54,280 nucleotides of DNA from Hydrurus foetidus. Taxonomy: Eukaryota. Below are positions 622 to 48,138 of the stretch, piece after piece. The stretch spans positions 62,001 to 116,280 of the forward strand of contig UYFQ01000740.1 in the NCBI GenBank assembly GCA_900617105.1, read 5' to 3'. The position numbers and the translations under genes are program-made. Within the stretch, counting starts at the first letter, position 1. Each line of letters starts with the position of its first letter. The notes beneath the pieces are model-generated. The model did not search any database and was not told where the DNA came from. It worked only from the letters and a program-made list of their open reading frames with translations.

Positions 622-3600
622 TCAGCCCTCATCCCTTGCACGTTTGCCAGACAATCGAGGTGACTCACTAAGAGCAGTTTCTTCACCATTGACGACCACA
701 ACAAGGGCTGAAGAAATTGATGGTTCATTCCGAACAGTTCGCAACGAACGTGACTCGAGCAGCGATGTCACTGTCGGATCCTCGTCATCACTGTCACAAT
801 CCCCGAATAGGTCTTCAGCCGCTACGCCTTCCTTCAGGGGCACTTGGCCTTGTTTCTCATCCTTTATGTCAGGGCCATTCTTCTGCTGCCCCTTGGGACC
901 CAAAGTGTTCGGACGTACAGTAAGGTACTCATGTCTGTAAGAGTTTGCCGCACCGGAATGCCTCAAAACCTGTCGATGATAGACGATAAGACGACGATGA
1001 AGGATTGCGACCCATAAAGATGTCCATCTGTTAACAAGACGCGCTTAGGCCTCCCTTCGTCTCACCTCTTCTTCATCAAACACGATGGCTCGGAAAGCAG
1101 CGGAATCGATGGGCTGACCCATTTCTTTCAAGAAAGACTTGATCTGTATGACAATCAGATATGAGATGTTGACCAGTGACATGTTATTATGGGATTCTCT
1201 ATGGAGCTGGGTTGCTACCTACCTCACTCGGTTGAGACAATGTCAGGTAAAGTGACTTCATTTGAGAATAGAAGTTGTGTCTATCCACGATAAACAGAGT
1301 CATAGATTCTCGTGTTTCTAAATAGCATCTTACGATCTTATCAACAGCAGAAAAGAGTCATCTTATCTCATATCTTATCGAATCTGACCTGGGAGACTGC
1401 AACGTCCACTGATAGGTTGAGCGCGCTTTCTCCGAGAAACTGGGTAATCCAAGGAGGGAACTTGGACCTCTTGTCCTGTCGGTTATACCGTGAGTCGGCC
1501 AGAACAACAGCTCTGAGCGAAACAGAAGATGAAGGATGGAGGGGGGCTGGTGAGGTGAGCGGAGGTTAGTTGGACTAAAAAGAAGCCAAGTACGGAGTTT
1601 TTCCCCTTAACTTCGGATCTCACCCATAGTCTCTCTTGCTCCTTATGACCCGACCTACGCACTGTGCTGCTTGCCTCAAAGCGTCAAATGTCAAGAAATC
1701 GTTATCACGGATCTGGAAAAGGCCGCACGAAAAGGTCAGAATTGATAGTTAGAGAAGAGCGGGAGGGTGTGGCAAATTAGTCCAATTGCGGGTGAACGAA
1801 AAATCAATTCAATTTAATGGGTCGGGCCGTATGAAATGGAGCCGGGAACGGGAAGCTCTCAACAATAAAGAATATAGAATTCTCAGATAGACAGAGTGAT
1901 CAAGACATTGTGCGCTTGTGGTACCTGATATTTCTCCCTCATGAAGTCCAGCCTCGCTCTCAAGACGTGTGACTTCGTGTACTGATAAGGAATACCGAAT
2001 AGCACCACACACCGACCATAATGATTATCAAAATCTATTCCTTCAGCTACCTTTCCTCTAGCAATGGATAAAAACACTGCACCTCTGCCTGAATCGCACG
2101 CCTTCTTGTAGTTGTCCAGTGCCAGTGTTGTTTCCACGACGTCCTTCGTCTCTAGATACACCAGTTTGTGCTCCATGCACTTCTGCAACACCCCCATCTG
2201 GTCCCAGTGATTGATCACGTTCTCCATGTACATGTAACTGAGTGGTCGATGAAGAGAAAAGTGTATAGAGAAATAACAGATGATGGATATGAGTGAGGGA
2301 AATATTGACGACTGAATGTTGACGCAGGGAATGTAAACTGCTGTTCTACTAGTGAAGAATAATGATAGCATGCACACGTTATGACAAGATTATCCAAATG
2401 TGTTCAGTGTAGACCGTGATCCACATATTTCATTCTTGTCGGTCAGTGACATGCTTCAGATAGAGTGCGAATTACTAAACTAAAAGAGGATTGGACAAAC
2501 CGATGTATGACGAAATAAAACTGGATACTTTGAAAAGCAGTTACTGCGTCTACAGGAATGTGATACGATAGAGATGATGCACCTTGTGAAGAAGCAGCAC
2601 ACACCGTCCGGCACAGTGGACACGATATCCAGCAAGAGTTTGCCGTAGTTACGCACCACACTCAAGTCGTCCCTCTGCTCGAATTTAGTGGATATCAACA
2701 TTTGGTCCGATCCTCTAGAGATGTCCAATTGTGGGGAGACATTAGAGAGATTAAGAGAAAGATTGAGAGCTTTATTGTCAAAATTTTGAATCACTTTTGT
2801 TTTTTGTCTTAGAGTTCAGACAGTCAGAGAGACAAACAAGCGAGCAAACAAACAAACTCACAGACGTACCTTGTGACGATGAGTGGTCTAAGACATTTTC
2901 TGAAGATGCTCATTGGCAAGGAATCTCGAATCACAGGCTGGAAGTTCAGCAGTTTCGGATAGAGATCGATTGGAGACAGTGTGCCTGAGTAGAGAGGTGA
3001 AGAAGGGATGGAGGGAGTTGGGTGATGTGAGTGGGCGAGCAGGAGGTTAGTTGTAGATAACATCGCCATAGAGAGAAGTCACTGGCATACGCATCAAAGT
3101 TAGCACTTCGTTCTAAGATGCAAATGCATTCGGCCAGTAATCAGTTATATATCGCGAATCTGTATTAGAACAACATGATTCGATGACCCAGGAATTTAAC
3201 AATTAGTGACGTTGATGTTGCGACATATCACAGAGTTAGAGAAAGGAGACCAGATACGTAAAGTACGGTCGGAAAGGAGGCGTTATGAGGAGCTTGACAA
3301 ATTAAAGTGAAGAGCTGAAGATAATCGAGGTGATGAGATATAGAGGTAGGAGAAAAAAAAGGTAAAAAAAGGAATGAACGGTAAGAGTGTGAGGGAGGAA
3401 TAATTGAAGAGAAGAAGAAGAGTTGGGGAGGCAGCTCGCGATTAGCATGACCAATAGGATTGATTCGTATCACCACGGTGTCACGCATGTCTGTGACGAA
3501 TAGTGTCGTCATCGCTGCCCTCTCCTGATTTACTACCATATAATACACTATCATATCTTATCCTATCCTATCATGTGCAACTGTTTACATTATATTCTAT

Positions 3601-4356
3601 TCTATAACATGCATTACAAGTATCCTATCCCATACTACGCTAGACCTGTCCTTCTCACTCTCTCCCTCTCTACCTCCACACCTTTCTGGCTCTGATTCAT
3701 CCAGTTCATAACCTCAGACATATGCAACGAAGTGTATGAGAGTCGAGGTGCGGTAAACACTCGATTTTGGTATTGATGTACCACATGGACCCCATTCAGA
3801 TGATATCATCAGATATGCAGTGATACGATTCGATACGAGAAATCCAGATATGACAATGGTCAGAGCACTCCTACGATAATAGTGTAGAGTAGGATACACT
3901 GTGCGACTTACTGATTACCACAGAATAAGGAATAGAGTGGAGGGAAGAATAATTGAAGAGAAAAAGAAGAGTTGGGGGGGCAGCTCGCGATTAGCATGAC
4001 CAATAGAATTGATTCGTATCACCACGGTGTCACGCATGTCTGTGACGATTAGTGTCGTCATCGCTGCCCTGCCCTGTTTGGTCCTGATGTATTATATCAT
4101 GTGCTATCTTATTCTATCAATTTCGACTTCGTCTTCTATTTCAGTCACTGCTATATCATACTGTATCTTCCCTCACTCCTCCACTCCCCTTTCCCTAACC
4201 TAATTTTCTAAACTACCTTATTAAAGGGTCACTGTGTACATTTGACAACACTGCTTCGTAAGACGTTAACTAAGAAAACATGATTGCCAGCTATAAGTCA
4301 GAGATACAGTGCAATGGTGGATAGGAAGTTATATTGAAGTATAGGGGTTCATAAGT

Positions 4357-4401
<45 letters not shown>

Positions 4402-7400
4402 TGTTGTCTTGGCAGAAGAGAAGCTGCTCATCAAGGTGCGATGTAAAGTGAGGGTTGGTATCCTTTCTACCATTTACAGATGAATAATTATTTCGATGAT
4501 GCAGGATGGATTGTCATAGGTCGTCACACTTCAGTGTTTAGTATCAGGTGATATGGCGATGCCGGTGATATGAGTGACTACTAGCCCTCCATCGCATCAA
4601 CTCTCTAACTTGCCTGAAGTGATGATGACGGACTGGAATCTGTCCAGTACGGGTTTGACAGCTAGTGACGCGTCCAGACAACACAGCTGCAGCAACGGCT
4701 CGTTCACTCCGGATATGATGCTTCCCTGTGATCAAAGGTCGTCAAGATGTTGCACAGGAGTGGAGACATTTGCAGGAATATCAATAGACGTCATATGGAA
4801 TTGCAGAGGTTTAAGCATTGGAAATCAAGTATCATATAAACATGACGTTTCAGTCTATAAATCATTCTGCATATAGCCGGGGAGATTAAAGACGGAACAA
4901 GATAGAGGGGAGATATAGATGCAAAGTGGTTGCAGGATTAGAGTGTAAGCATAAAATACCTGTGGCTCTGTTATGACTGCGAATCCTTCCATGTAAGTAG
5001 CCAGAAGTGTCACAAAGTTGGCTACATGCGAGAGAGCGTTGTACTGGTCTAGCGTGGTGACCTAATTCGGATACAGAGAGAATTGAAAAGAGATGCACAT
5101 TAAAATAATAACAGACGAGAACAAAAAAGAGATGAGCCCTAAGATCATATCAGTACTAGAATGAGGTCATTAGGAATCCCATTCCATTCCATTCCATTTT
5201 ATTCCCTTTCAACGCATTTTATTTTATTTTATAGTAATGTGCGAATTTTCTTACCTCAAGGGTCCTCAACAAAGAGTTCAATCGAGAGTACGTGAATCGC
5301 AAAGCCTTCCTTTCTAGACCAGACTTCGCGTGTAGCTCATATAAGAACGCCAGAGGAGTTTTGTTTTCCACTTGTTTTGCGTCCCTGAGATATGTCTTCA
5401 GGTACAGTACAGCCTGAGAAAAACATGGTGGAATAGCAGAGAGATTAAAGTCGATCATTCTACGGCGCGTTTATTACACTGGATATCATAAGATGAGTAA
5501 TTACGTACAGACGAGCGAGGTTAAAGAAAAATAATGTAGTAGAGGTGACAAATGCGAAGGGGGTAAGTGGGACAAAAAGACTTGGCTGAGAGTCATCTTA
5601 TCTCAGAAAATTGAGTCAGTGAACACCTTCTTTAGGAACGCCACAAAGTGTTCTGCCTTCCGAATGCTCCCCGGTACAGCTTCTTGAAGGATGTCTGCAC
5701 TCAGCACAGGATTGGCCATCACACGGTCTATGAAAGCAAAAGTATCGCGAGAAGATAACAAGGGTAGATGGGAGAGATGGTGGTTTGATTAAGAGGAGAT
5801 GACAGGAGGTGAATCGAAAATTGTTTGAATTAAAGAATGGGGTTATCACTCTCGGACAAGCGGGGGAACTGAAAAGCTGACAGGTCAGTTTAGTGGGTAT
5901 CGAATCATATCAACTCATTTATGGTACGGCATGGATCTACGGCATGGATCTATTGAATCTACCCGAGATATGTGACGTGAAGCGACTGGCTAGCTCAATG
6001 GCGTGTGTGTGCATTATCTTTCTGTCTATCTGTGCGACTGTACGTATGCGTCAGCATGCTTCTATGTGTATCGAACTACCAGAAATGCATAGCATCGCAT
6101 CCATATCATCGGTATCAAGGACGCACCAGCTGCTGACTGTACTTGTCCCCCCTCTGCAGGGCCCGAAGAAGAGCCGGCCCCCTGTCCCTGTCCCCTGCTC
6201 CGCTGGAATATGCCCTGATCTGCTAACCCATTCACTAAGTCAGCGTACTGAAAGATAGAGCAGAGCAGAAAAAAACATGGGAGAACAGAGCGAGTTAGTA
6301 CAGGTCAGTTGTGGAGAGGATTCGCTTGCTTTGTTTCTATCACCTCTTTCGCCAATCTCTGACTGTCGCTGGATTTCATGTCGGCCACCCTCTTCTGCAG
6401 CAGATTCACACTCTTTGCAGATTCATCCAGTGACTTCCTATCGAGGGTAACGGAGAGGGCTTCGATGCAGACGTTGTCGATGTTGTGCGCTTCATCGAAG
6501 ACAACGATGCTCTCAGCTTCAAGCTCTCGTGACACCAAATTCGAAACCTTTTTGTCAGATTTGTGTGAGAGATGCAATAAGAAGCTGTTTTTCCTTTGCA
6601 AAGAGGTGCATCCGAATGTCACACGGTTGTCAAGTTACGGCAAGGATATCAATAGGAATAGCAACAGCAGTAGTCAATATTTAATAATCGAATCATTCGA
6701 GATACTCTCACCTTCGGATCAAGCATGTACTGATAGTTGTAGACCACGATAGTTGCATGATTGAGCAGATGACGAGTCATGAAGTACGGACACCATTCTC
6801 TTTCTTCTCCTAACGTCTTCAAGTCTTCCAAGGTGTAAACTCCTTGAGGAATTTCTGTGCGATTACGACGCACAAACATCACTCAGATTTTCTGACAATG
6901 CACAAGCACACGTCAGCTACGCAATTGAGCGTGAAAAAACTCACAGCAATTGAGGCGTCAGAAAAGTCGTACCAGCATTAGTGCCGTCTTTATCGTAATT
7001 TTCATACTTTTCGCATAATTCATGTGCCGCCCCCTTCTTTGCTCGTTCTCGCACCCAAGATGCTGTCATATTCCGGCAAAGAGAGTCAACTGCCTCCCTA
7101 TCACCCTCACTGGTTACTCTTGGATGAATACACATATTCCTGCGAGAGCTGAGGCAGATCGCAAGCACTTTGCCCCCAGCCTCACCAACCATTTTCACAC
7201 GATAATCGATCACTTTCTTGATTTCCTCCATGCATTTCTGCATCTCCTGCACTGTTCGGGTACAGTAGATCAGTTTCCCCGTCTGAGGATACTGAAATTG
7301 GTACGCTGTTATGAGTGATATCAGACAGACAGTTTTTCCTGTCCCCGTTGGCATCTCGAGAAGTGCATGCCCTTTCTGATCGATTGCACGCTTCAGCTGA

Positions 7401-7477
7401 AGCATGTACTCATACTGCTCCTTGTAAAGATAGTCATAGGGAAAGAAGAGATCGAGACCGTCAAGATCAAAACGCAT
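622..7477 (-). CDS. ERCC2: TFIIH/nucleotide excision repair 5'-3' DNA helicase XPD (Rad3), multi-exon
   Basis: ATG at 7477 ([18 protein letters not shown]). Walker [10 protein letters not shown], Fe-S cysteines (NMCIHP, SLCR, ELCE, WCPYF), [35 protein letters not shown] and RQAAQCVGR. About 14 exons linked by canonical acceptors; final acidic exon ~969-622. Confidence 0.95.
3391..4070. repeat. ~130-bp direct repeat pair (about 3391-3521 and 3940-4070) inside the long XPD intron
   Basis: Both copies read gaataattgaagaga..agttgggg.ggcagctcgcgattagcatgaccaatag..ttgattcgtatcaccacggtgtcacgcatgtctgtgacga.tagtgtcgtcatcgctgccct with few substitutions. Confidence 0.9.
4356..4401. repeat. (ACAG)n microsatellite in XPD intron
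   Basis: About 11 tandem acag units. Confidence 0.9.
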
Positions 7478-8636
7478 TTTCAATCAGCAGCTCCAAAGCA
7501 TCGAGACAGTAGAAAGCCTCCCCGGAAGCAATGCTGGAGGCACCTCAAACATTGAGGGACTGGGAAGAAAGTTGTTGTTGAAAGAGCTCAAAGATCAGCT
7601 TATCGTATCAACGCAATTCGCAATCTCGGAAGCTGCTACCTAGGAGTGCGTACACATGTCGGATGTACCATGCACGAACGTTTCTGCATCCTTAGCGGAG
7701 CTGTGGCCTGCTGGAGATTAGTAACCACAACCCACAACCCCTAAAATGCAGGATGCAACAGCAACATAAGGAAGTTGATCAAGTCGGGCCCTAATAAGCA
7801 AGCGCGAGAATATGATTCTAGCATCTAAACTGACAGAATTACGTAACTTAATTCTGTTGTAGCCACTTACAGCTACCCACAAGAGAGATATTTAACTAGA
7901 CTATGTACCAAATAAATACGCGTTACACTCCCACGTTACTGAATTCAGTGAATCAACTTAATGCACCCACAATCTTTCAAGCTCTCAGCATCAGCATCCC
8001 AATATCCTTGGACCAGACATTTATTATCGACAATTATTTTCCGGAAAGGATTGTACAGTGTTCGTGCAATGATCGGGCTATTTGCACCACGATAATAATA
8101 CAATTTCAGCGGAATTAAGTGCGATCAATTGACTGCTGTCAATCTCTAAAACTCTCGAAGAACTGAAAAGATGAAATAAGAAACAAAATGATTAATTCAA
8201 TGCAATTCATTATCAATTGGATCCAGAAATAGGTAACTCGCCAGATATTGCTACTTTGAGATGCTGTGAGCTCATGTTAGTGAAAAAGTTATCTACCATC
8301 GAATTCAATCCTATCCCATTATTACGGATGAAGGATTATATTCTACCCCACATTCATCAAGAAATGATGATATCAACCCTAAATTACGTGGGCTTTAGGG
8401 GTAAACTGACCATTTCTTCAAATTACACTCTATGGATGCTAAAATAGACCTAAATTTGGTGGTGTGTGCAGCTGTGAATTTCAACTCTCGCTCGAGAGCA
8501 CGAAGCTTGAGTGAGGTACTGTAGCCGTTGCTGGGGCTTCAGAGCTTATAAGTGATCTTTCTCCCATGAACAATATGCCAAGATTGTGCAGCTTGACTAG
8601 TGGCTGATACTTCAAATTCACCAGAAAGTGCAACCA

Positions 8637-12747: not shown

Positions 12748-13880
12748 TCATCCGGATCCTGGACTTCTAAGATCGAAATCCCCTTTGTAGTTGCTCATCA
12801 CCTAAATTCGTCAAAAAATACAAGATGCTTAGTACTTCATCGCATATTAGTGATAGATAAAACATCAATATATAGTTCACTTCACTACTTGTTTGCAGTA
12901 AATAAGTTGTTTATTTGTATTCGCTAACCTCCAGAATCATGGAGCGCATGGTGGTCATGTCGGAGGGGTCCTCCATGTCGTGTGTGCTGCTCTTCAGAAG
13001 GGTGATGGCGGCATCACGCGTAGAACAGTTCTCCATCAGCTGTAGAGCAAGACTAGATGGAACTTGATCATCGCTCAGACCGTGGATCAACCGGATAGGA
13101 CAGTCGATCTGAATTGAACCTGAAAGATGCAGTAAAAATGTCAATATTTCTGATTTTCTAGTAGTTAGGTCACTCTTGACAGAAGTAGGATTTAAAGAAG
13201 GACTCACCTTTACCACCAGTTAGCAACAAATTGTTGCGGCCATCGACTATGAGATTGCGAGAAATAGAATACTTACTCGCTCCCCACTTTATCTCTGCGA
13301 CACCTTCAGTCATGATCTTCTCTTTAATTTCTTCTGAGAAACTCTTCCACAAGAGCTCCTCAGTAAAGTCTGGGTCAGCAGCAATACCAACAACTCCTCT
13401 TACTAGATCGGGCCTTTTAGATGCAATTAGAAACGAGATCCATGCACCAACTCCGTGTCCCACGAGAACCACCTTTCCCTGCTTCTTTCCCAGCAGATTT
13501 TCAATAAGGAAAATAGTATCCGATGTCCATTTGCTAACTGTCCCGTCAATGACAGCACCGGTTGATTTGCCAGTCCCAAAATAGTCTGCGCTGAGAAAGG
13601 AGAATCCATTCTTTCTGCAGAACGATCGTAAGTTCACTGATTTACCCTCCGACTTAGGCCTGATCAAACCCGGTAAATACAATATCGGGGGACCTGAGTG
13701 AGGGCTCGCCTTCACGACGTCGTAACATACAGTGTTACCGTCAATCTCAATCATCCCATCTCTAATAGTCTCAACGACATTGAGGTGGGTGGGTAAACGA
13801 GAACTCTTGAGGTTATTCGAGAAAGAGGTTACTGATGATAACAGTAAGAAAAAGAAAGCGCATGAAAGACTGTTTGGCAT
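12748..13880 (-). CDS. Alpha/beta hydrolase fold protein (ABHD10-like), predicted plastid-targeted, nucleophile Ser replaced by Gly
   Basis: Leader MPNSLSCAFFFLLLSSVTS-F. Motifs LYLPG, DYFGTGKS, LVGHGVG (nucleophile elbow), IAADPDFTE, IHGLSDDQVP and STHDM. Three exons ending DFDLRSPGSG* at 12748. Confidence 0.85.
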
Positions 13881-14620
13881 TTTTGCAGCAATCTTGACGA
13901 TGCAGTACACTGATGCAAAGATAAAGATTGGCAAATGGATTGTACACGATAGAATTATTGCTACGAAGTAGAAGTGGCTCATTCAGTATCCCCTCTCCCC
14001 TCTTCGATCTTCAATATATACAACAATAACTGCTGCTAGGATACTTCTTTGTTCTACCACATCTATACGGTTTTTTTGTAAGTTTGATGTACTGTAACGT
14101 ATTACGTATGACCAAGGTGACTTTTAAGAGGTAAAAGGAGACCTTGATTCTTTTTTTGGTTGAGATACAGCTGTAAAGAACAGGTATGTATCGTGGTTTC
14201 AATACATCGGATATGTAGAGAAAGGGGTTCCTCTCTGCGGAGAAAAAGTAATACCCACCGTGCTATTCTTCTCCAAAACGACAGCTTTCCAATCTCCAAA
14301 AGTTTTCTGATGAGATGAAAGTGAGAATCGCGCACAAAATTGATCCACATAATGAGCATGAATTCAAAGTTATCATCATAGATGAGAGTTATCTCAGCAG
14401 ATATTTCTTCTGAAGTAGACTTGATTAAGGAATAGGATTAAGGAATTGGCTACTGTGAGACAGATATCATCATAAGTATGTAGCGTGTCAAATCAAAGCC
14501 GACATTCATAACTCGCAGAATATGATTGCTCTCAAATGATTTGCTTTCGGGATGTGATTTGTGTTCTGCGATACGCACACTGTATACACTGTACCTACAT
14601 GTACAGGGATGGAAGCGAAG

Positions 14621-14792: not shown

Positions 14793-14929
14793 GGATGACT
14801 GATCCAGATCTATGATCTATGTGAGGCAGCAACTCGATACACCATTAGCCTACGGTAAACTTCAAATTGCTCTGTCCTATATCGTACCTCTCAACAGCGT
14901 TCTATTCCAAAGAAAGCGAGAAGCCGGCC

Positions 14930-16792
14930 ATGTCGAGAATTATTTTCTCCGTACTATTCTCGCTGCAACTTGTGACTTTCACAGACGCGTTATCATTACA
15001 AACCAAATCAATCCAGCGGCAGCGGAATGTCGCGTTGCGATCTGTAGGGAGCGATCTTTTACAACGACCAGAGGATGAGGACTCTGCTGAATATAGAGAG
15101 TATTTGAAAAATTTGATGAAAATGCAGGCCAATAGGGCGAAAAGCGGTCATGCCGCACCTTCCTCCGGATCCTCGGATGCTTATTTTGCCAAGTTGTCCA
15201 GATTAAAAATGGAACGTCAAGCGCTGAGGAAAGCAGGTTTACCGGATGACATGCTGGACACTTCATACACACAAGACGACTTCGATTCGGCAATGTAAGC
15301 ACAGTCTATAAATTCCTCATTTTCACTCAATTTCAATTTCAATCTGTATTTCCGATGCAAACCTTACCGATTTCCAGCTACGAGGCCCAGGAGCCCCTCA
15401 TCAGTGCGACAATTTTGTCTGGTGATGCTGCCATTGCGACCAGGGAAAGAAAGAGCAACGCGAAATCGAGACCAAAGACTTTCGAGGAAATGAACATGGA
15501 AGAAGCTGCTGACCGCAAAGTTGCGGAAGCAAGGGCACTCCAGGAATTGCTACCTGAGTCGGAAAGAGCACAAATTGCTCCAAAACTGACGAAAGCTCCT
15601 GTCGTACTGTCAACTGAACAATCTCCAGATCAAGATTTGATTGATAACCTCCTCAGCAGAAGAGCTTTGATCCAAGCGAAACCTCAAGCGGAAGTACAAC
15701 AGCCACAACAGAAAGCTGTCCGTACCCCTGTTCCGACACCAGTCGTTAGTAAGCCAGCACCAGTGAAACAGCCCGCAGTCGTAGAGAAGGTTGTACAGAA
15801 GGCAGCATCTGTAGCATCGGCTGTCCCTCTTCGCCCCCTGCCCCCACGTCAAACTTCCCCTCCTCCCCCTCCTGTGAAGCAAGCTGTGAAGCCACCAGCA
15901 CCTGTGGCTGCAAAGGCCGTCCCCCCTCCTACTAAAACTGCCCCAGCACCTGCAGTTCCTGTCCGCGCAGTTGCCGCTCCTGCTCCAGTCGCTACACCAG
16001 TCGCTTCGGCAGGCAAAGAGCCAAGAGCAGATGAGATGGAACTCATGGCTCGGTCCCTTCAAATGCTTGTGAAGCACAGAGGCGGTGGACCATTCGGTCC
16101 TGGTCGTCTCCAGTCACAGAAAGATGTCGAGGACATGGAGAAGTCGCTCCTCAGCACCGTGGAGATGCTGAAAAGATTAGATGGCGTTGTCAGACCTGCT
16201 CAAGTCCCTGTAGCGGTAGCTGCTCCTGTGCCTGTGAGGGTGACACCTGCACCTGCACCTGTTCAGCAGAAAGTAGTTACACCTGCACCAGTCACAAGGG
16301 TCGCTCCTCCTCCACCAGCACCAGTAGCAGTTCCAGCAGCAGTTTCAGCACCAGTACGTATACCTCAGCAAGCAAGAGTTGTTCAGGAAGAAGAGGAAGA
16401 AGCACCAATGACCATTGCTCAAGGTCTCAACCAATTTCTGTCAGCGCCACAGCTGCGGTCCAGTGAGGTCAGCGCATTCTTCTATCTTGTTTTTCCCCTC
16501 TTGCAGACGCATCAATCGATGTTTATAGAAAAGAATGTCCACCATGTGCTCCTTTTTCTTACTCCTCAATTCTGAGCATCTAAAATCTCCGAATTGTATT
16601 GCAAACGTGTGCGCCATCACATTACATCCATTTGTGCCACTACGTCTCACTTCGATACATCTTCTTGATTTTGTGAAATGCGATCGTTTGGTGAAAAGCG
16701 ACACACTACTGAAATTGGTTGATCGTTGTACAGGATGCATCGACTTCACTTCTAAGCAACATCATCTGACACATCGTACACAACTGCACCCC

Positions 16793-18400: not shown

Positions 18401-19953
18401 ATGATATCGAAGCTGATAGCATGTGCTATCGTATCATTTCTGGTGTCTCGGTCTTCCGCCTTAAGTTCTTTTACGGCACAGTCAGCGACATCCATCAAGA
18501 AAAATCAACAAATGAGTAGAATTCTCCTCGGCAAGAACAAGAGACCCATGAAAGGCAGCAGCGCAGATTTCAAGAGTCAACCAATGGAGTGGCGGCAAGC
18601 TGTACGATTTTTAGATGAAACACTGTCGACTGGATTTATCCCAGACGTTCAAACCTGGTAAGTTCGAGAGAATCCAGCAATCAACAACACCTCCAAATCT
18701 ACATTCATGACACTTGACAATACAACGTACTTAGGACAACAGTTCTCCGCATATGTCAGAAAAGTCGGGAGGCAATTGCTGCGCTGTCAGTGTTCAATCG
18801 AATGAAAGTAAGCGGTGTCGAACCAGACCGCTTCGCATATCAAGTGGCAATATCCAGCTGCCTGCATCTAGAATGTACAACAGACTCTTGGCAACGAGCA
18901 GTTGCTCTATTCAAGGAATGTGACAAAATATTACCTCTTACCGGATCTGGCGGTATAATGGACGGCAAGCTCGCCATGTCAATCTTCTCTGTGGTGATCA
19001 GTGCGTGCGAGAGAGCAGCGCAGGGGAGAGTTGCTATCGACCTCTACGATCTAATGTCTCAACGTGTCAACCTCCCCCGACCAGACCTTGTGACTGTTTC
19101 CTCAATAGTTGCTGCGTGCGAAGTTGAGAGCGACTGGACAAAACTAGAGACCGTTCTCACTAGCTCGAAAGTTGTCCCCGATCTCATACTCTACCACCAA
19201 TTAATACGCATAGCTGGTAAAAGAAATGACCCTAAAGAGGCATTCAACCATTTGAGAGCGGCTGTGAAGCAGGGGCTGCGTCCCACGAGGGGAACGTACA
19301 GAGAGCTTGTGGAGGCTTGTAAACACAGCGCTGACCGTGTGCCGAATGGCGCGTACCTTCTGGAGCAAGCAAAGCTGCTTCTCAATAAAGCTTTCTCAAG
19401 TTGCATTGCAACAGATGAGGGACCCGTTGCTGATTTTCAATTGAATGGTGAAATATTATCAGCGAGTAATGGCCCCGGTGGGCCGTACGAACAGGCAACT
19501 CGAAAAATGTTGAACGTACTCTCTGTCACTACGGACTTCAGGCTACACGACCATTCAGCTCTTCCGGAATCAGGGCGACGCGTTCCCATGCAAGCAGCAC
19601 AGGAAATATTAGCAATGCATTGTGAGAAGCAAGCATTGGCAGCGCTGTTGGAGGACCAAGGTGATCATGAGAAGCCTGGCGACACCATACGCATCGCTGT
19701 CAGTCTCTGCATGTGCTCAGACTGCCACATGGTATTCAAGTATGCAAGTCAGGCGTACAGCAGGCGCATTGAATGTCATGACCCGAGTCGGAAGCATTGT
19801 TTCGAAAATGGTTCATGTAGCTGCCTTGATAACTGGCCGGGAAAAAATAGGATTTCGAGTATGGGTACTCCCGTGAATATCTTGACGTTCGCTCCGGATG
19901 ATGCGAAGAAGTCAAGTGATCTGTCACTCACGTCATCTCTGATTCACGATTGA
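18401..19953 (+). CDS. Pentatricopeptide-repeat protein with C-terminal DYW-type cytidine deaminase domain and N-terminal targeting leader (~491 aa)
   Basis: Exons 18401-18657 and 18735-19953. PPR-like units (PDVQTWTTVLRIC...FNRMKVSGVEPDRFAYQVAISSC; PDLVTVSSIVAAC; PDLILYHQLI; PTRGTYRELVEAC). DYW signature HCEK...LCMCSDCH...IECHD..RKHCFENGSCSCLDNW. Confidence 0.85.
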
Positions 19954-21458: not shown

Positions 21459-24400
21459 TTAGACAGACACAGGGGCTTTCATGGTGCCTTGGAATTTGTC
21501 CACGAGGATCTTCGCAAGCACTGGCAAGAGATCATCATCACTCATGGGGATGCCCTTGAATGTGGGCTCCATCATCAGTGATGCCTGTTCGCCAACCTTG
21601 CCTCCGATGAAGATGTTCACGCCTGGGACAGCCTTCATTGTTCCTTCTTCATTAGCCTTTCTGGCTGGTGCGCCCATGAGACCGATGTCGGCCACTTGGA
21701 CTTGTCCGCAACTGTGAGTCAGATAATAAATTTTCTGATTGGCGAGAGTATCGTAGGGTCAAAGGGAAAACAAAAATGTTAGTGAATTCTAAGTGTACCT
21801 GTTTGGGCAGCCAGTCATGTGGATTCTGATCGGGTGAGGTACGTGAACCATGTCCTCTAGCTTGCGTGTGATGTGATCTATGGCTAGCTTGGTCTCAACC
21901 ATGGCGAGAGGGCAGAATTGGGATCCAGTGCAAGACACCACGTGTCCTACGATGTGGCCGGGGTTCACAGTGAGCCTGCTGCCTTCCTTTGTGAAGATTG
22001 GCTCCTTGAGGAATTCGGGGATTTTTTCGTTGGGGATGTTGGGGAAGAGAACGTTCTGCTCTACTGTCAGGCGGATCTCAGAACCGGAGTATTTCTCAGC
22101 GAGGTCAGCGATCTCCAGGCACTCATCAGCACTGAGACGGCCGACAGGCACGTGTACGCCCACGTATGAGAGTCCTTCCTGTTTCTGTGGGTGGACACCG
22201 TTAACGTCTCTGTGGCCGTGCTCCCACTCACCCTTGTGCTTCTGGGGTGCCTGGAAGACGTACTCAGGTACGCCTCTGATGGTCGCCATCTCTGTTGCCA
22301 CCATGGCGCTGAACACGTCTAGGCCCTTGGTCTCGATGAGCCACATGAGACGGGTCTTCTGTCTGTCTCCTCTGAAGCCTTCATCTCTGAATATGCGGAG
22401 GATGGATTTGCAGAGGTCGAATGCGTCACTGGCGGGGATCCATGCGTTCATTGGGATAGCCTCAGCCGCTCTCTTGATGGAGATGTAGCCGCCTAGCACT
22501 ACATTGAATCCCACTTCTCCAGTGGTCTCATGCGGGCATGCTTGAAGACCAATGTCGTTAATGTTGGTGTGTGAGAAGTCATCTCTTGTGCCTGAGATGG
22601 CGATGTTAAATTTGCGGGGCATGTTGGCGTACTCGGGGTTGCCCTGTCCGTTGTTAGAGTACCAGCTGTCGATTTGCTTAGCGAGAGCTCTCGTGTCGAA
22701 AATTTCGTGTTCATCAATACCTGGGGTTTGGATCGGATTGAGTTGAGTAAACAGCGGAGTCGCTATCATCTTATCGCAGATTAGGGAAATTCGTCAATGT
22801 TGAAATGCAGTACCTGCGATGGGAGAGCCGACCATGTTTCTAAGATTGTCCAGACCACTCATGATTGAGGTCATGCCTCGTGCCTGGAGTCCCTTGAGGA
22901 TATCAGCGGCATCCTCGAGAGGAGGAGAGCGAAGCTGAATGTTCATGCGGCAAGTGATGTCAACAACGCCGATCTCTGGACCGTAGGGGCGAACGCATTC
23001 GGAGAAATATCTGTTGACAGAACAAAAGTTGGAGACAAGATGACAGTGTCAAGCTTTATGTTGTGTAGGGGGGACCACATCATGTAATAGCGTTGAAAGA
23101 CTGCTTCACTTGTTAGGAGTAATGATAAGAAGCATGTGCAGTACCTCATGTCGGATGAGCGGATGATGCCATTTGGAAGGCGGAGGCGCATCATGAAGCG
23201 TCCTGGCGTTGCCTTCTTTCTGTGGAACATTCCTGCGTACTTCACGCGGATGTCCATGTCGTCGCTGCCGATTTCCTCCCTACAGTGGGTTGAGTAAAGC
23301 ACGTGAGGTGTCGGCAATGATTGCATACGACAGTGTTCTCCAAGACTACTTCGACGAAAGAGAGTTACGAAGTAAGGGGGAGCACACACCAGTTGGTTTT
23401 TCCTTCTCTGATGGCGGCAGCGAACTCGTGAACATCGGTCCACAGCTGTGTGGGGTCCTTCTTCTGCTTCATCTTCTCAATGTTGTTGCCGACCTTCGCT
23501 CTCTCGAGCGTCTCTGGACTCAGCCACTCGTTAGCGGTTTTCATGTTCATGGTAGTGCGGGTGACCTTCGTGGAGGAGGGGATGAAGCCACCTCTGATGT
23601 TCATCATCTTATTGGGAACGGCACCAGTCGCAGGAACTGGAGCAGCAGCAGGACTGCTGCCTAGAAGAGATCCATATGCCGCTGAGTATCCCATGGCCAC
23701 GCAACCGGCACCTCCCACAATGTTGCCGAGTGTGACTGGGAGAAGATTCTTCATAAGAAAGTCTGCAGCAGTGATAGGGGCCCCGCGCATGATGCCCAGT
23801 GGGATTAAAAACATATTGGCGATGGAGTGGTCTAGACCCAGGGCGATGAAGGCTGAAATGGGGAACCAGATTGCTACCATCTTGCTGATAAGTGACGTGC
23901 ATCCTGATGCCATGTAGACAGCCATGCACACCAACCAATTGCACAGCACGCCTCTAATGAAGAGTGTCTTGAAAGGGTAAGACACCTTCATGTTGGCAGT
24001 GAGCACCGCTGCAGGTCCATCACCAAGAGTTGCTCCGTTGAAAGCCAACCAAGCCATTAACAAAGATCCCACAAAGTTGCCTCCGTAAGAGAAAAACCAG
24101 TTCTTCAGAAGGTCTTTTATTTCAGCTTTCTTCTCGATGACAGCGGCAGTCACAAGCGCCGTGTTACCGGTGAATAATTCACCGCCACCGACGAGGGTCA
24201 TCATCAAACCTAGTGATCAATCGCAATTGCAGATCAGATGATGTTTCAGGTGAATCAACACGTAAGCTTGTAGGTATTTACCAAAAGGAAGGCCGAATGC
24301 TCCTGAGATAATCTTCTGTAGCCCAGGATTTGTCTGGGCGAGTCCTGGACAGGCACCACCGACAGTGAGAACGAGGAAAGCCCCTGAGTAAGACACAGAA

Positions 24401-24828
24401 GTTTCAAACGAAGTTATATCTCTGATCGATTACAGATGTTTCTCGTCAGTTTGCTGGATTTACCGAAGGCTATGTGACAGCCGCTCAGAATTCCGAGGAT
24501 GAATGTTTTCACAGGAGATAGTCCAGCTTTTAAGGCCCCGAGTTCAACGACATTTGCATACATTGATTTCGGCGCTCTTAGCTCAGGAATGTCGCTTGCT
24601 GCGGCAAGTTTGGTCTGGCCGCCTCTGACTTTTAAACCACGGTGATCTAGTCCTATCGACGATTTCGATGGCTGGACATAGCCACGACACGAAACGACTG
24701 CCAGAACGGCTAAGACCGTCACGGCATTGAAATTTCTCTGAGAATTGAATGGGGCAACGATCGCATTAGTTCGTGGGACCACTGGTAGTAGAAACAGAAG
24801 CACGCATCATTCGTGGGGAACTTACCAT
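21459..24828 (-). CDS. NAR1-NIR: Fusion gene: plastid-targeted formate/nitrite transporter (NAR1/FNT family) + ferredoxin-nitrite reductase, ~901 aa
   Basis: Exons 24828-24826 (ATG only), 24737-24464, 24383-24282, 24209-23390, 23279-23145, 23010-22814, 22720-21799, 21711-21459 sum to 2706 nt (902 codons). FNT motifs GLPFGL, GGELFTGN, YGGNFVG, GVLCNWLVC, LGLDHSIANMF, VTLGNIVGG. NiR motifs FMMRLRLPNG, DITCRMNIQLR, NMPRKFNIAI, NDIG, RQKTRLMWL, CTGSQFC and TGCPNSCGQ (siroheme/4Fe-4S Cys). The junction lies inside exon 4 with no stop. Confidence 0.92.
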
Positions 24829-25345
24829 CGCTTACGGGCTCCTTTTTCAATTGTGTTAAGTTGCCACCTTGATTCCACAAATTCCAGCGATGGCTTGGTT
24901 GCGCTACTGTACGGAATGCGATGATGCAACACAAGTTTGTGAGAGTACGTGAAGGGGACTACGCCAGTACAGTACTGATTTGGAACCGACTGGCAACTGA
25001 ACAGAGTCGAAAGAATTCGTGCCATCTTCGAATCGGACACAACATGGTTTTGCATTTGCATAAAAATTTGGAAGAACAGAATGCAGATTTTTATCCGGGA
25101 ATGCGAAGAACATGCTGACATTGTCGTGACAGAATGTCTGATGTCCGAATGGATGAGGTCCCAGCTCACGCTCACGCAAATGGTATGTTGCTGTTTTGTC
25201 AAGAGCAGCTCGATTAGCACCGACAGTGACCACATACAGCAACATCAGCAGTGCCCCGGAGCCACAGCATTAAAGCCCTACTAATCTATTAAGTGCACAG
25301 ATTGCACTCATTTAAGGAGAACATCAACCGATCGCCGCTTCTGTC
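24829..25345. promoter_or_regulatory. Putative bidirectional promoter shared by the NAR1-NiR fusion and nitrate reductase
   Basis: 517 bp between divergent start codons (24828 on -, 25346 on +) of two genes in the same pathway. No specific motif identified. Confidence 0.65.
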
Positions 25346-28300
25346 ATGGCTCCCGCTGCTGAACTAGGTCCTTTAATTGGGGCGTCGTTATTCGCAATCA
25401 TCGTCGCTGTCACAGCCAATCGTAACATCACCAAGAAACCCTTAACTGAAGGGAAGGCAGAGGAATCATCTGTCGAAGTCAAAGATGAATTTGAGGGGCA
25501 GTACCAACCAGGACAGCCAATGCCTAACTACACACCTGACGAAATAACGAAGTACTACTTGAATGGCATGATCGACGATGAAACCTTTCAAGAGTCTGCT
25601 ACTGTGATTGATGGAAGAGATGCTGATACTCCAGACGAGTGGATTCCTAGACACAAAGAACTCGTGAGACTCACGGGCAGGCATCCATTCAACTGTGAAG
25701 CTCCACTGAAAGCTCTCCATGAGAAGGGATTTATCACACCTACATCTCTCCACTACGTGCGAAATCACGGTGCTTGCCCAAATATCGCATGGGAGAACCA
25801 TGTCATTGATATTGGAGGCCTTGCTCCTAAACCAATTCAACTGAAAATGAGAGACATAATGGCTCTCCCAACGCACTCACTGCCAGTAACCCTCGTGTGC
25901 TGCGGTAATAGACGTAAAGAACAAAACATGATTAAGCAGACGATTGGATTCAATTGGGGCGCTGCTGGTGTTTCTACTGGTGTGTGGACAGGAGCTCGTC
26001 TCATCGATATTTTGAAACTGGCTGGAATAGAGGGCATCGACAACTTTGCGGAGGGACATCACATCAGATTTGCATCAGAGAGTGAGCGAGGAGGTGACAA
26101 ACTGCCTGGAGGAGTCTATGGAACCAGCATATCCCTTGAGAAAGCGGTAAGTAAGATCTACCTTCAAGTGTCGATCATCTTCGAGGGTTTCTGCCGCGCA
26201 AGTTTTCCTCTTCTAACTCTGAAATGTTTTCATCGAACAGCTGGACAGAACACAAGATGTCATCGTGGCTTACATGTACAACGGCAAACTGCTGACACCA
26301 GACCACGGATTTCCTGTGAGAGTAATTATTCCTGGCTACGTCGGAGGCAGAATGATCAAGTGGATGACAAACATTGACTTGATCGGCACCATCTGCCAAG
26401 ACTACTACCACTTCTTCGACAACAGGTACTGCTCATACCCCTTCTTGTATCCTCCTACTCATCTCAAATCAGCACCACGCTGTGACTGATGACTGTGATC
26501 ATGCATACGCACTACTGCAGAGTCATGCCTCCACACGTGGACGCAGAATTGGCGAAGTCTGAGAATTGGTGGTTCAAACCTGAATACATCTGCAACGATC
26601 TCTCCATCAACTCTGCTATTGCGAAACCAGATCACGACGAAGTGCTGCAAGTGACACCAGAGGGGACATACACATGCGGAGGATATTGCTACACTGGCGG
26701 TGGACGAAGAGTGACTCGCATGGAGGTATCCCTCAACAGTGGAGCCCTCTGGCACCTCGCGACAATCAAGATTACTGAGAGGCCATCACGGTCTGGCAAA
26801 TACTGGTGCTGGATCTTCTGGGAGTGCACTTTCACGCATGCTCAGCTAGCTGAAGCCTCTGAGATTGTGCTGAGAGGCTGGGACGAGGGACACCAAACAC
26901 AGGTGCGAAGCAGTTCAGTCCACAACAACTCCACTCCACCCCAAGCACCATGACCTCATCCCTCTATCTAACTTTTCACATTCTATGAACAACAATGCCA
27001 GCCTGACAAGCCCACATGGAACTTGATGGGGATGCTTAACAACCCCTGGTTCAGGGTGAAGATCGCCAAGACAGTGGACCCAGTGACGGGCAACGTCTCC
27101 CTCCAATTCGAACACCCCACACTCGCAGGTATTACCACTCATACTACGACAATATCAACTGTGAAAGTCGAGGTCAATCACTCGGACTCGTTGCCAACAA
27201 TAGGAAGCACACGAACCAGACCTCATGTGATCTCCATTTTTGACTCCTTTCACAGGCAATCAGAACGGCGGATGGATGCCTAAGATTAGAGAACATCCTG
27301 CACTCACCACACCGGGCGTGTACATGGACCCTGCCACAGAGACTGGCACCCTCATCCCCTCGTTGGTACCCAAGACAGTCGAGGAACCAGCTGTTGTGAA
27401 AGCTGTGTTCGATCCTTCGAAACCACATTTCAGCATGGAGGAGGTGGCACAGCACACTACTCACGACTCCGCCTGGTTCGTGGTGAACGACAAGGTGTAC
27501 GATGCGACTCCTTTCTTGAAGGCCCACCCCGGAGGAGCAGAGTCGATTCTGATCAGCGCTGGTATCGACACCACTGAAGAGTTCGACGCGATCCACTCCA
27601 AGAAGGCATGGAAACTGCTGGACGACTACTACATCGGACAGCTGAGGCCAGCCGTCGCCGAGGGTGATATCTCTCCCACGACAGTAACCGCTATTCCAGA
27701 GGAAGTGCATCGCGTCAACGCCAACGGAGACTTGCTCGCCCTGGACCCCAAGAAAAAAATCGCCTTTACTCTCTCCGAAAGAATAGTGCTCAGTCCCGAC
27801 AGTCTCCTCCTCCGCTTCGCCCTCCAGACACCCAAACACATCTTGGGCCTACCTGTTGGCCAGCACATGCTCTTCTCCGCCAAGGTGGATGGCAGTATGG
27901 TGATGAGGGCTTATACCCCCACTTCAAGCGACCATGACGTGGGTCACTTCGACTTGGTCATTAAGGTGTACTATGCAGGCGTGAGTTCTCAGTACCCTGA
28001 GGGCGGCAAGATGTCTCAGTACTTGGGGAAGATGGTCGTAGGAGACAGTATTAACGTGAAGGGCCCTCTAGGACACGTCACGTACGAGGGCAAAGGCGTA
28101 CTCACCCTTGGACAGGAGACGCATAAGGTGAAGAAGTTCTCGATGCTTTGCGCCGGAACAGGCATCACGCCTGTGTACCAAGTGTTGTGCGCAGTACTCA
28201 GAGATCCCAAAGACACCACGGAAATGTCTCTGATCTTCGCTAACAGAACCGAAGCCGACATTCTCCTTAAAGACGAGCTGGACATGCTTGCAAGAGGGCA

Positions 28301-28562
28301 TCCCAACAGACTGAAAGTGCACTACATCCTATCCAAGCCAGCAGACAGTAAGAAGTGGTTAGCCGGAGACGGTGGGAACTGTCCCTCAACCCGCTCTGTC
28401 GGACACCTCAACAAGGAACTAGTCGTTTCTAAGTGCGCACTTGGGGGCATGGACTCAGGAGCATTCGCACTGCTGTGCGGACCTGACGGTTTCCTCTCCC
28501 AGGCATGCGACCCCGCCCTCGAGGCACACGGATACCCCAAGGAGATGTGCGTGTACTTCTAA
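25346..28562 (+). CDS. NIA: Assimilatory NAD(P)H nitrate reductase (Moco + dimerisation + cytochrome b5 + FAD/NAD domains), ~933 aa
   Basis: Exons 25346-26146, 26241-26425, 26521-26902, 27002-27128, 27256-28562 sum to 2802 nt. Motifs RLTGRHPFNCE, HYVRNHG, TLVCCGNRRKEQN, DHGFPVR, WNLMGMLNN, cyt b5 HPGG and FDAIHS, RAYTP, AGTGITP, CGP. Confidence 0.97.
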
Positions 28563-29456: not shown

Positions 29457-38269
<8,813 letters not shown>

Positions 38270-38726
38270 GACAGAGATTCTAAGCTGTCAAGCGGAAAGC
38301 GATGAGCACAGTTGGATTCATCATAGCTCGTTGTTGTCTAATTCAAGGTCATTCGAGCAACTATTCTGAGCTCCAAAGCTGCGCAATTTTAAAATAGCAT
38401 GTTTTGTACATTCCAAATTCCAAAGAAATGGGCATACAGTGTACAAAATACAAAATACAAATTTCCAACCGTGCTTTTTGTATTCCGTGTGTGTACCTCA
38501 GCAACAAGTACAAACTCTACAGTAGTAAACTTCTGAGTTCATCCAAATCTGAAATAATGTGGATTGATTGTGGAAGCTGATTTATGTACTATGATGTGTG
38601 TATCAGTAGGTTTGACACATTGGAGCTCCGCCTATTCACCGCTGCTGCAGAAATCTCGCCTCAAGGCAGCAACCGACGCAATTTGAAAATCTACACTGCT
38701 GGGTTACCAAGGGGTGATTAAATAAC

Positions 38727-43436: not shown

Positions 43437-44357
43437 CCATAAAATTTCCTAGTACTCACTACTGACCGAGGAGTACAGTAGCTCTCACTCTCGGTCAGAT
43501 TGCGTTTTCTTTTTTTTCCGTTGAGCTGTTGAGATATATATTTTTGTATCAAAAGATTTCGCGACCACCGTAATGAAGTTTACTCATTCAACAAAAACAG
43601 AGGAAAGCCTATTAGCCTTTGCGAGCTGTAAATTCGCCTGATGATTTCGAATTCGACCTTTGCGATTTTCCACTTGATGATGAAGAGGGTAACACACACA
43701 TCTTGTTTTACTGTAGAGTCTTTAAGCGTCATAACATGTATCATTCAGCGGAGCACTTTATTCTTTGTCCAAGTGTAATACTGTATTTGACTCAGAATTT
43801 TATTCTGTAACACTTTCACGATAAATCCTGTACCCGTCCCCGAGTTCTGGCCTGCTGCGGACATATAGATCTGACCCTACCATTTACGGGAGTATTTGAT
43901 ATTTTATGGAAGCAGTTTTCATGATCTTTTTCGCTAAATCATATCAATTGCATTCCCTGTCAAGTCATATTTGACTTAAGAACAGATAATTATCAATTTT
44001 CATGACTGAGGAACTCTTGATGCTTTGAATTTTGATAGAAATGAGAAGGGATTTTTTTTTACCGAAAGCGACTGAAAGAATCTATCTTCTATTTTTAGTA
44101 CACATCTTTCTCGACGAAGTATTTCTGTCCGTTGGATTGGCACAAATGCCCAAAATCCAAAATCGAATCTTAGATCTTCCGACGTCTTTTGAAAATTCTG
44201 GGACGACAAAATTTACGGAAATACCATACCCGTTGCGGTGTCTGATCTGTGAAGGTTTTGTCCTGATGCCCTGATGCCTGTGTATGACTTCGCGACAGTC
44301 TCCAATCCACAGTGATTATCTCTAATAAAACCGCTGGAAAAGAGCTACTTCGCTGCC

Positions 44358-45918
44358 ATGAGGATAATGACCACTTTATGCCGTGCGTCGCGAATATTGG
44401 CAGTGTCAATGAGCTGCAACGTAAATGTTCGTGCTGCACATAATGTGGCACACGTAGTAACTTCCACTTACGATGCAATCCCTGAGCACCTGTCGCTTAC
44501 AAATGTTGTCGTAATACATCGTCATGGCGACAGATCTCAAATAAGTAGAGAAATCGGGCCAAATTTTCCAGAAACTGCAGACATAAAGGAAATTTGGACT
44601 TCCAAACTTCCAGTCGACACAACAATGATGACAATGGCTGCTGCAGCTCATGTTCCGACCGATGTTCTGTCTCTGAATGTTGAAAAAGCGGTTTATACTG
44701 GGTGGGACGAGAAGAATATACCATACGGACAACTGACTGAGTTGGGAGCACACCAGCTCATGAATATTGGAAGGGAACTCCGTCGGAGATACGTTGGCTC
44801 TTTACTTCCATCGGAATCTTTTGACGCGTCAACGTTACTATATTGTAGATCCACAAATTTTTGCAGAACTATCCAATCAATTCGATCGTTGCTGTCTGGA
44901 CTCCTTAAAGTGGATGGTGACGACTACTCCTCCATGAGAAGTTCCCAGCAGTTGCCTGTCATCCTGAGTAGAGCAAAAAAAGATGAAACTATGTTTCCTG
45001 GAGCTGATGGACCATGTTCTGCTATGACCGAGAGAAGAGCAGAAATTTTTGCTGAGAGTTCAATGGAATCGTCGATACCTAATTATTCAGAATTAGAACA
45101 GAAGATGAGAGACGTTCTGGGTTATGGAGATCGAGTCAGCTGGCTGCCAATTAAAGAAATCCTGACATGTTACGAAGCCCATGGAATTAAATTTCCAGAA
45201 GGTGCGACAAGGTCTTGTGTGCAATCTGCCCCTATAAGTTTTTGCACGATTAATGTCCACCTTGTTTGTTTAGGTATTACTGATAGCGATGCCGATAGAG
45301 TCACCGACCTGGCAGGATGGATGTGGGGTACGATGTACAACGACGATGCTCTTAACCGCCTCGCGATTGGCAGATTTCTCCGGGAACTGCTAGATGTTGT
45401 TCATTCCGCTGTATTTAACTTGCCGACACCACCACCGTCATCATCGTTCTCCTTTCTCCCCTCAACACCCCCACGTACATCGTCTCTCGAGCTTGAAGAA
45501 CACGCTAAAATGATGATCTTCAGCGGTCACGATTCCACCCTTGTTCCTGTGCTATGCGCTCTCGGCATATACGATGGTAAGAACTCATCTTTAATCTGCC
45601 CAATGCGATCACACTATCCTCTAAGACACTATGAACAAACCTTTCGAAGGTGTGTGGCCCCCTTACGCATCCTACTTAAGCATCGAAATTGCTGAATCAC
45701 TTACTGACAAAAAGACGAAATTTGTGAGGGCTATATATAACGATCAAGACAAGATAATGATTGGTTGCGGCAGTGTGTGGTGTCCCTATGAATTGTTCCA
45801 TGCCCGCCTGGAGAGCCTCGCTTTAACCCATGAGGAATACATGGGTAATGCGCAGTGCTCCGTAGGTGGTGACGGCATGGTTGACGAGGATCTCAAGGCC
45901 ACACTGGGGGAGAAATAG
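44358..45918 (+). CDS. Histidine acid phosphatase (branch 2; ACP6/lysophosphatidic acid phosphatase-like)
   Basis: HRHGDRS catalytic motif, GQLTELG, RST..RT..S, SGHDST and WPPYAS. Introns 45202-45273 and 45577-45649. Confidence 0.9.
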
Positions 45919-47772: not shown

Positions 47773-48138
47773 AATAAAAAACTCCGAAGTAAATCTGCTG
47801 TATGTTGTATCTACAGAATACAGTATATTAAGTATTTTGTATTCTGATAGGCATGCGGCATGCTCTATGAATTTTTGAATTGGGGGATTAACCGGATGGT
47901 GGTTCCACCTTTATATAACAAATCCGGTATTTCACTGGCTTTTTTTGGTCACGGAGGACGTGTTCTCCTGCTTTTTGGGGCTCTTTTCAGGTTTTTTTTG
48001 CTTGCGAACTCAACATTCTTTTTTCATTTTGTGGCGTGATTGATTTCAGTTCGACGGCTTTGGTACAGTACACACTAGACAAGACAACACGTGTCTTCAA
48101 CATTCCAGAGATCAACTGTTCCAGTCATTGTCATTGTG

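Follow-up and report, generated by a model that had tools for sequence, protein, structure and literature searches.

An FNT/NAR1 channel and ferredoxin-nitrite reductase are encoded as one chain in Hydrurus foetidus and joined by a linker with a conserved RGG motif

Can one gene supply an algal plastid with both a nitrite channel and the enzyme that reduces nitrite, and if so, are the two proteins used as one chain or as two? The question is raised by a locus of Hydrurus foetidus in a stretch of 54,280 nucleotides (assembly GCA_900617105.1, contig UYFQ01000740.1, positions 62,001 to 116,280 of the forward strand; the window, numbered from its own first letter), where a gene at 21459..24828 on the minus strand joins a channel of the FNT/NAR1 family to a ferredoxin-nitrite reductase (NiR). 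In the algae tabulated in the available passages of PMC4620153, NAR1 and NiR are separate genes, whereas the present channel continues into NiR. A preliminary description of the DNA had proposed the fusion, with a junction free of introns, and had offered two uses for it, a tether that channels nitrite straight to reduction or fixed 1:1 co-expression.

The gene consists of eight exons (24828-24826, 24737-24464, 24383-24282, 24209-23390, 23279-23145, 23010-22814, 22720-21799 and 21711-21459), the first of which is the start ATG alone, directly followed by intron 1. Joined, they amount to 2706 nt; the 902 codons of the preliminary description are 901 amino acids and a stop, and the product has a mass of 97.4 kDa. 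The seven introns are all of the GT-AG type, 72-134 nt long, and every one was recovered as a splice joint in stranded oligo-dT reads, with 9-34 reads per joint and run in X17 and X18, two stranded poly(A) RNA runs from one sample. Exon 4 is one uninterrupted reading frame that leads from the FNT core via the linker to the N-terminal part of NiR, and no splice joint was present within it in the same reads, in agreement with the intron-free junction. Over the junction the read depth was 16-29x, without a step, across four bins (23356-23919), and no pile-up of molecule starts or ends was listed there in the stranded RNA reads. Two spliced freshwater metatranscriptome contigs also bridge the junction, record 6 of X2 (2264 nt, spanning 24096 to 21406) and record 2 of X1 (1490 nt, spanning 23847 to 22018). 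Among the 40 read variants listed 34 are coding (30 synonymous, 4 missense, no stop), and the sole coding indel listed is a 3-nt in-frame deletion at 23654, in the linker; neither a stop nor a frameshift at the junction is among them.

A fusion might be mimicked by an error of assembly or annotation or by a pair of overlapping transcripts, and a contig spanning two genes is indeed no proof of one transcript. Given that the open frame lies in one exon, that the stranded depth is even and shows no internal starts or ends, and that the same frame is found in 22 other protein clusters from several sources, this explanation is very improbable. The FNT-NiR gene is real and expressed, as one spliced mRNA with one open frame of 901 residues, and the single transcript also bears out the suggested 1:1 co-expression.

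The channel half (residues 55-309, 23662..24578, exons 2-4) is an FNT/NAR1 domain (PF01226); exon 4 alone matches this family at E 6e-59, with 199.7 bits against a curated cut-off of 34.6. Its nearest solved chain is Chlamydomonas LCIA (PDB 9v2a, E 3e-49), and the structure model of a Dinobryon orthologue has the six-helix FNT fold and matches 9v2a with a TM-score of 0.96 over the target and a root-mean-square deviation of 1.2 in 254 columns. This fold and the conserved Thr and His are common to the Chlamydomonas NAR1 family (NAR1.1; NAR1.2/LCIA). In the window protein T140 and H254 are present, as are L138, V220, F247 and A257; for the pore Thr and His and the constriction residues we assume the roles known from FocA and NirC. 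Across the fused-clade rows the pore His is found in 24 of 24 and the pore Thr in 23 of 24. Nitrite is the presumed substrate, because the channel is fused to NiR and its gene is adjacent to a nitrate reductase gene. A clustering with nitrate genes is likewise described for Chlamydomonas NAR1.1 in passages of PMC4620153. The channel is preceded by a predicted signal peptide (residues 1-20, 24681..24828), a hydrophobic stretch with a boundary set by eye, and by a predicted first transit peptide (residues 21-46, 24603..24680) that begins with Y-x-x-P, following the (F/Y)xxP rule given in part of PMC3774753, and holds a first RGG at residues 39-41 (24626-24618).

The second half (residues 349-901, 21462..23544) is a ferredoxin-nitrite reductase. 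PF03460 (NIR_SIR_ferr) was matched in exons 6 and 7 and PF01077 (NIR_SIR) in exons 7 and 8, two of each, the pieces in exons 6 and 8 being partial and scoring slightly below the cut-offs. The ligand pattern of sirohaem and the 4Fe-4S cluster, Cys-x5-Cys followed by Cys-x3-Cys, is made up by C774, C780, C815 and C819. These four Cys, two ferredoxin-like half domains and two 4Fe-4S/sirohaem domains are shared with plant, diatom and haptophyte NiR (PDB 3b0h, 2akj). Judged by its matches to tobacco NiR (E 9e-83), spinach NiR (about 1e-82) and maize sulfite reductase (6e-17), this half is closer to NiR than to sulfite reductase. The Dinobryon fusion protein scores 593.5 on NCBIfam PRK09566, where the cut-off is 594, and its model displays a channel fold and a NiR fold with a low-confidence linker between them. 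Both the identity of the halves and the retention of their signature residues had been anticipated correctly.

The fusion is not peculiar to Hydrurus. When longer proteins were searched with exon 4, 48 matches were obtained, of which 19 run from channel to NiR and 2 from NiR to channel; together with the partial forward fusions P0188, P0213 and P0334 and the window protein, the forward fusions total 23. P0188 and P0213 were added by a HMMER search of 50%-identity representatives, in which 27 proteins were Pfam-scanned and the best 150 held no further domain order. The 22 other clusters with this order include Dinobryon divergens, Epipyxis sp. PR26KG and one MMETSP transcript. In a tree that omits the truncated-looking P0081 and P0099, the fused NiR domains fall into a single chrysophyte clade (SH-aLRT 99) whose sister group comprises unfused diatom, raphidophyte and haptophyte NiRs; the window is accordingly most likely of chrysophyte origin. 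Three apparently unfused NiRs (P0080, P0082 and P0083) nest among the fused ones, a constraint that keeps the fused ones together being marginally rejected (p-AU 0.04 in the approximately unbiased test), and three unfused channels (P0203, P0331 and P0332) nest inside the fused clade. The apparently unfused P0082 retains the linker RGG described below. This nesting suggests later splits of the fusion into separate halves, and therefore that the halves can become separate again. In P0210 and P0475-P0478, FNT proteins of the fused clade, the called frame ends two residues past the linker RGG, which may reflect a true split or an unspliced intron; P0210 was left out of the 23. Other architectures were seen as well: in P0190 and P0193 NiR is C-terminally fused to a rubredoxin-like segment and a FAD/NAD reductase, a possible electron donor, and the other long FNT proteins (P0022, P0023, P0025, P0031-P0035) include EF-hand plus FNT in Durusdinium and FocA plus CBS in Vibrionales and relatives.

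The two proteins of reverse order, P0024 (a 10-member cluster) and P0026 (2 members), are known from gene calls on metagenome contigs alone. Placing them in one clade with the chrysophyte NiRs was rejected with p-AU 1.2e-5 in a quick tree of 32 of the 73 rows, and an independent origin is therefore probable. Their FNT domains group loosely, with low support, with green-type NAR1, and their linkers are without RGG and resemble, by eye, the ends of green-algal transit peptides. Two further suspected reverse fusions, L005 and L006, were rejected when their loci were read; a metagenome scan of 18 loci yielded, among the long open reading frames listed, unfused FNTs or NiRs, and the ESM Atlas gave no usable match for the reverse fusion or for the linker.

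What, then, does the linker do? In the window protein it is made up of a variable Ala/Pro-rich spacer (residues 310-327, 23608..23661), in which the 3-nt deletion allele lies, a conserved motif (residues 328-334, 23587..23607) of the form hydrophobic-hydrophobic-x-hydrophobic-R-G-G with a putative cut after the second Gly, and a segment resembling a transit peptide (residues 335-348, 23545..23586). Across the 23 forward fusions the distance from the last membrane helix to NiR varies from 31 to 98 residues, and the linkers are nearly unalignable outside the motif, with pairwise identities of 6-25% at the ten positions before it and 7-19% at positions +2 to +11. Nevertheless, R-[GA]-G is present in 23 of 23 (21 RGG, 2 RAG), when 1.26 would be expected from shuffling each linker, and positions -4, -3 and -1 are mostly hydrophobic. 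The C-terminal tail of ubiquitin has the same arrangement, with hydrophobic residues at -4, -3 and -1 and then RGG. Directly after the motif, position +1 is aromatic in 18 linkers (17 Phe, 1 Trp), in comparison to 0 of the 11 R-[GA]-G motifs found in N-terminal NAR1 presequences (Fisher p 1.5e-5, a value that is overstated because the compared rows are related). Those 11 presequences, 5 of which belong to forward fusions, carry R-[GA]-G just before the mature channel; the set includes three rows that were added for a visible RGG, two of them parsed. An RGG before the mature part occurs in 3 of 119 FNT proteins, mostly diatom by name. The linker is predicted to be disordered, with model confidence (pLDDT) below 50 at residues 303-337 of the Dinobryon protein and at residues 185-198 and 201-223 of the exon 4 model.

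The part after the motif looks like an ochrophyte plastid transit peptide in composition. In the window protein it begins with Phe335 and has 14 residues, of which 6 are Ser/Thr, 2 are basic and none is acidic; it ends in M-N before a Met, in keeping with the stromal-peptidase pattern (Leu/Met at -2 before Met/Ala/Ser), its net charge is positive, and its length is within the 12-42 residues of such peptides. Over the 23 linkers, Ser/Thr make up on average 33% and Asp/Glu 1.4% of the first 12 residues behind the motif, and passages of PMC3774753 give diatom transit peptides an F or Y start, 32% Ser/Thr and 0.9% Asp/Glu. Table S7 of the same source, with which the segment was compared, holds 63 experimentally defined diatom stromal transit peptides; 16 of these are 14 residues long, and RGG was found in none. 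At the place of the motif, unfused NiRs carry a signal peptide, then F and a transit peptide ([AGS]-[FY] in 58 of 76), and RGG was found there in 0 of the 88 that could be parsed (10 of 98 were unparsed). Compared with an unfused NiR, the fusion thus has a channel domain and RGG in place of the signal peptide, while the Phe-initial, transit-like part remains. The motif, in other words, sits where the signal-peptide cut is made in unfused NiRs.

Processing of some kind into two proteins is in our judgement rather probable, and a separate delivery of two plastid proteins, not of one tethered machine, is likely. The form of processing that we favour, at about an even chance, is a polyprotein cut just after the linker RGG, which would free a NiR precursor with a transit peptide of its own. 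Entry into the four-membrane plastid would depend on the bipartite N-terminal presequence. A protease that the chain meets ahead of the inner envelope pair, with the periplastid compartment as the most plausible site, would then cleave behind RGG. The 14-residue transit peptide would thereby acquire Phe335 as its N-terminus, just as unfused NiR precursors acquire theirs through signal peptidase, and RGG would stand in for the signal peptide lost from NiR. That an aromatic residue has been kept in mid-chain suggests a new N-terminus, and hence a cut directly after RGG. According to passages of PMC3774753, the aromatic +1 directs import over the inner membranes when it comes right after the signal-peptide cut; because its role is tied to that cut, the cut is placed before the inner envelope pair. 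NiR (precursor about 63 kDa, mature about 61 kDa) would then be imported and become a soluble stromal enzyme, and the channel (about 30 kDa) would remain in a plastid membrane and pass nitrite produced by the nitrate reductase of the neighbouring gene. The benefit of the fusion would lie in making and delivering the proteins of uptake and reduction together in a fixed way, without physical channelling. A periplastid ubiquitin system and a candidate deubiquitinase (ptDUP) exist in such plastids, as stated in part of PMC12412216. More tentatively, and with some doubt on our side, RGG-F may be an internal substitute for a signal peptide that is cut by a periplastid protease reading a bare ubiquitin-like tail, and the RGG in chrysophyte, haptophyte-like and some diatom NAR1 presequences may mark an undescribed import processing step.

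Several observations weigh against a cut at RGG. The cleavage, its location and the protease are what we infer from the observed gene, its splicing and expression, its domains and its motif conservation, and the 23 rows are not independent trials, because the forward fusions share one origin event. The aromatic +1 is missing in 5 of the 23 linkers, including the whole subclade P0010/P0012/P0016, in which the segments after RGG are short. A strict stromal-peptidase pattern follows the motif in 5 of 23 linkers (3.9 expected) and a relaxed one, written after the data had been seen, in 12 of 23 (7.2 expected), no clear enrichment in either form. The stretch before RGG is likewise poor in acidic residues (4.0% Asp/Glu, 25% Ser/Thr), so that the contrast is modest. 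Five of the 23 fusion proteins have RGG inside their first presequence, and a cut there would cost the channel its own transit peptide. Deubiquitinases usually require a ubiquitin fold before the motif; exon 4 has no Pfam ubiquitin match, and the region before the di-glycine is modelled as low-confidence coil with one 4-residue helix. In Toxoplasma PUBL, moreover, an internal RGG is unprocessed and can be mutated without effect, according to passages of PMC5487736.

If the chain stays uncut, it could assemble into a pentameric channel in the inner envelope whose termini both lie in the stroma and which bears up to five tethered NiRs that take the exiting nitrite. RGG-F would then have been retained for some other function, for instance to engage the import apparatus a second time beyond the six membrane helices. 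Because the N- and C-termini of FNT channels lie on the same side, a C-terminal NiR would face the stroma. The reverse-order fusion, which probably arose independently and is without RGG, indicates that fusion can be favoured without the motif; the uncut RGG of PUBL and the weakly supported stromal-peptidase site point the same way. On the other hand, linkers of 31-98 residues with no conserved docking segment are not what a tether would call for, their sole conserved piece resembles targeting information, unfused descendants occur inside the fused clade, and even the reverse-fusion linkers look, by eye, like green-algal transit-peptide ends. We consider the uncut chain unlikely. Of the two uses first proposed, the plain tether has thus fared less well than co-expression: R-[GA]-G in every linker, the transit-peptide-like stretch and the predicted disorder fit processing better, and nothing was found in favour of channelling.

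The whole chain might instead be imported and cut in the stroma only, by the stromal processing peptidase after Asn348 or by a stromal protease at RGG, with no second import step. The end of the window segment, T-T-M-N before Met, is like a diatom cleavage site, the relaxed pattern is matched in 12 of 23 linkers at lengths of 4-31 residues, and the RGG of the N-terminal presequences sits just before the mature channel; in P0010/P0012/P0016 cleavage at RGG would leave S or M as the first residue, both typical of mature N-termini. Such a cut would leave unexplained why 18 of 23 linkers retain an aromatic +1 amid diverging flanks, the enrichment of sites is weak, and RGG is absent from the 63 diatom stromal transit peptides of Table S7. 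This alternative, too, seems rather unlikely to us, and a cut after RGG ahead of the inner envelope pair remains the reading we prefer.

Plastid proteins made as one precursor and released by cuts in linkers are familiar from the polyproteins of Euglena and dinoflagellates (LHC, RbcS, form II Rubisco) and from the Chlamydomonas PETs. These are mostly tandem copies cut in the stroma, whereas the present fusion joins an unrelated membrane protein and soluble protein, and its cut is a putative one. Ubiquitin fusions offer a likeness in the RGG motif, which resembles the ubiquitin C-terminal tail, but the linker lacks a ubiquitin fold; Toxoplasma PUBL has an internal RGG likewise (PMC5487736, in part). 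Among fusions of the nitrate pathway, the ichthyosporean chimeric nitrate reductase (passages of PMC6400420) and the raphidophyte nitrate reductase-truncated haemoglobin (passages of PMC4620153) join enzyme to enzyme, with no channel-NiR fusion.

The neighbouring gene for a nitrate reductase of the eukaryotic type (25346..28562, plus strand; molybdenum cofactor, dimerisation, cytochrome b5, FAD and NAD domains) lies head-to-head with the fusion, separated by a divergent intergenic region of 517 nt (24829..25345). This region is likely a bidirectional promoter: minus-strand RNA reaches the bin 24907-25047 and plus-strand RNA starts showing in the bin 25189-25300. The nitrate reductase N-terminus (25346-25420, plus strand) has an extension of about 90 residues with a hydrophobic stretch at residues 10-24 (mean hydropathy 2.5); this stretch may serve as a signal anchor and hold the enzyme at a membrane, for example that of the plastid endoplasmic reticulum. 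Elsewhere in the window, a pentatricopeptide repeat gene (18718-19953, plus strand) ends in a DYW deaminase domain (PF14432, E 6e-17) with visible H-x-E and C-x-x-C motifs. In land plants DYW proteins act in RNA editing, and among protists their occurrence is patchy. An alpha/beta hydrolase (13170-13982, minus strand) and a second protein (14849-15298, plus strand) have apparent signal and transit peptides with no RGG in their presequences. A Helitron-like element (48079-52280, plus strand) shows a weak OTU-like protease match, DUF6570 and a weak Helitron_like_N match, and a tandem repeat of about 33 nt (34800-35570) with long open frames on both strands seems to be intronic to a DEAH helicase gene on the minus strand (29961-38287). 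The genes for an XPD-like helicase (DEAD_2; 1883-7483, minus strand) and a histidine phosphatase (44316-45695, plus strand) are ordinary.

Neither the NAR1/FNT-NiR fusion nor an RGG targeting motif was found described in the titles and abstract beginnings searched, which include few subscription journals; supplements other than those searched may list the architecture. The fusion is not mentioned in the passages seen of PMC6400420, where the terms are absent from the 12 of 31 supplements searched, nor in those of PMC4620153, PMC10328945, PMC5462543, PMC12136025 and PMC5811012, and the words nitrite, nitrate and fusion are absent from the chrysophyte genome paper PMC7954800. The claim of novelty is tempered by the fact that the architecture is common to a chrysophyte clade and stands unremarked in public protein sets, where both Pfam domains are precomputed and the proteins are named for one half only. 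Channel and enzyme are both known; what is new is their fusion, not in print as searched, and the conserved linker signal.

Channel-NiR fusions probably have two origins or more, with the domains in opposite orders, and this recurrence suggests selection that couples the entry of nitrite with its removal. The RGG-F linker offers a handle on protein sorting among the four membranes of red-derived plastids and on the cutting targets of the periplastid ubiquitin-like machinery. A linker that is cut would be a natural module with which a single gene could be made to express two plastid proteins in diatoms or Nannochloropsis; an uncut one would make the protein a rare channel-enzyme unit for nitrite.

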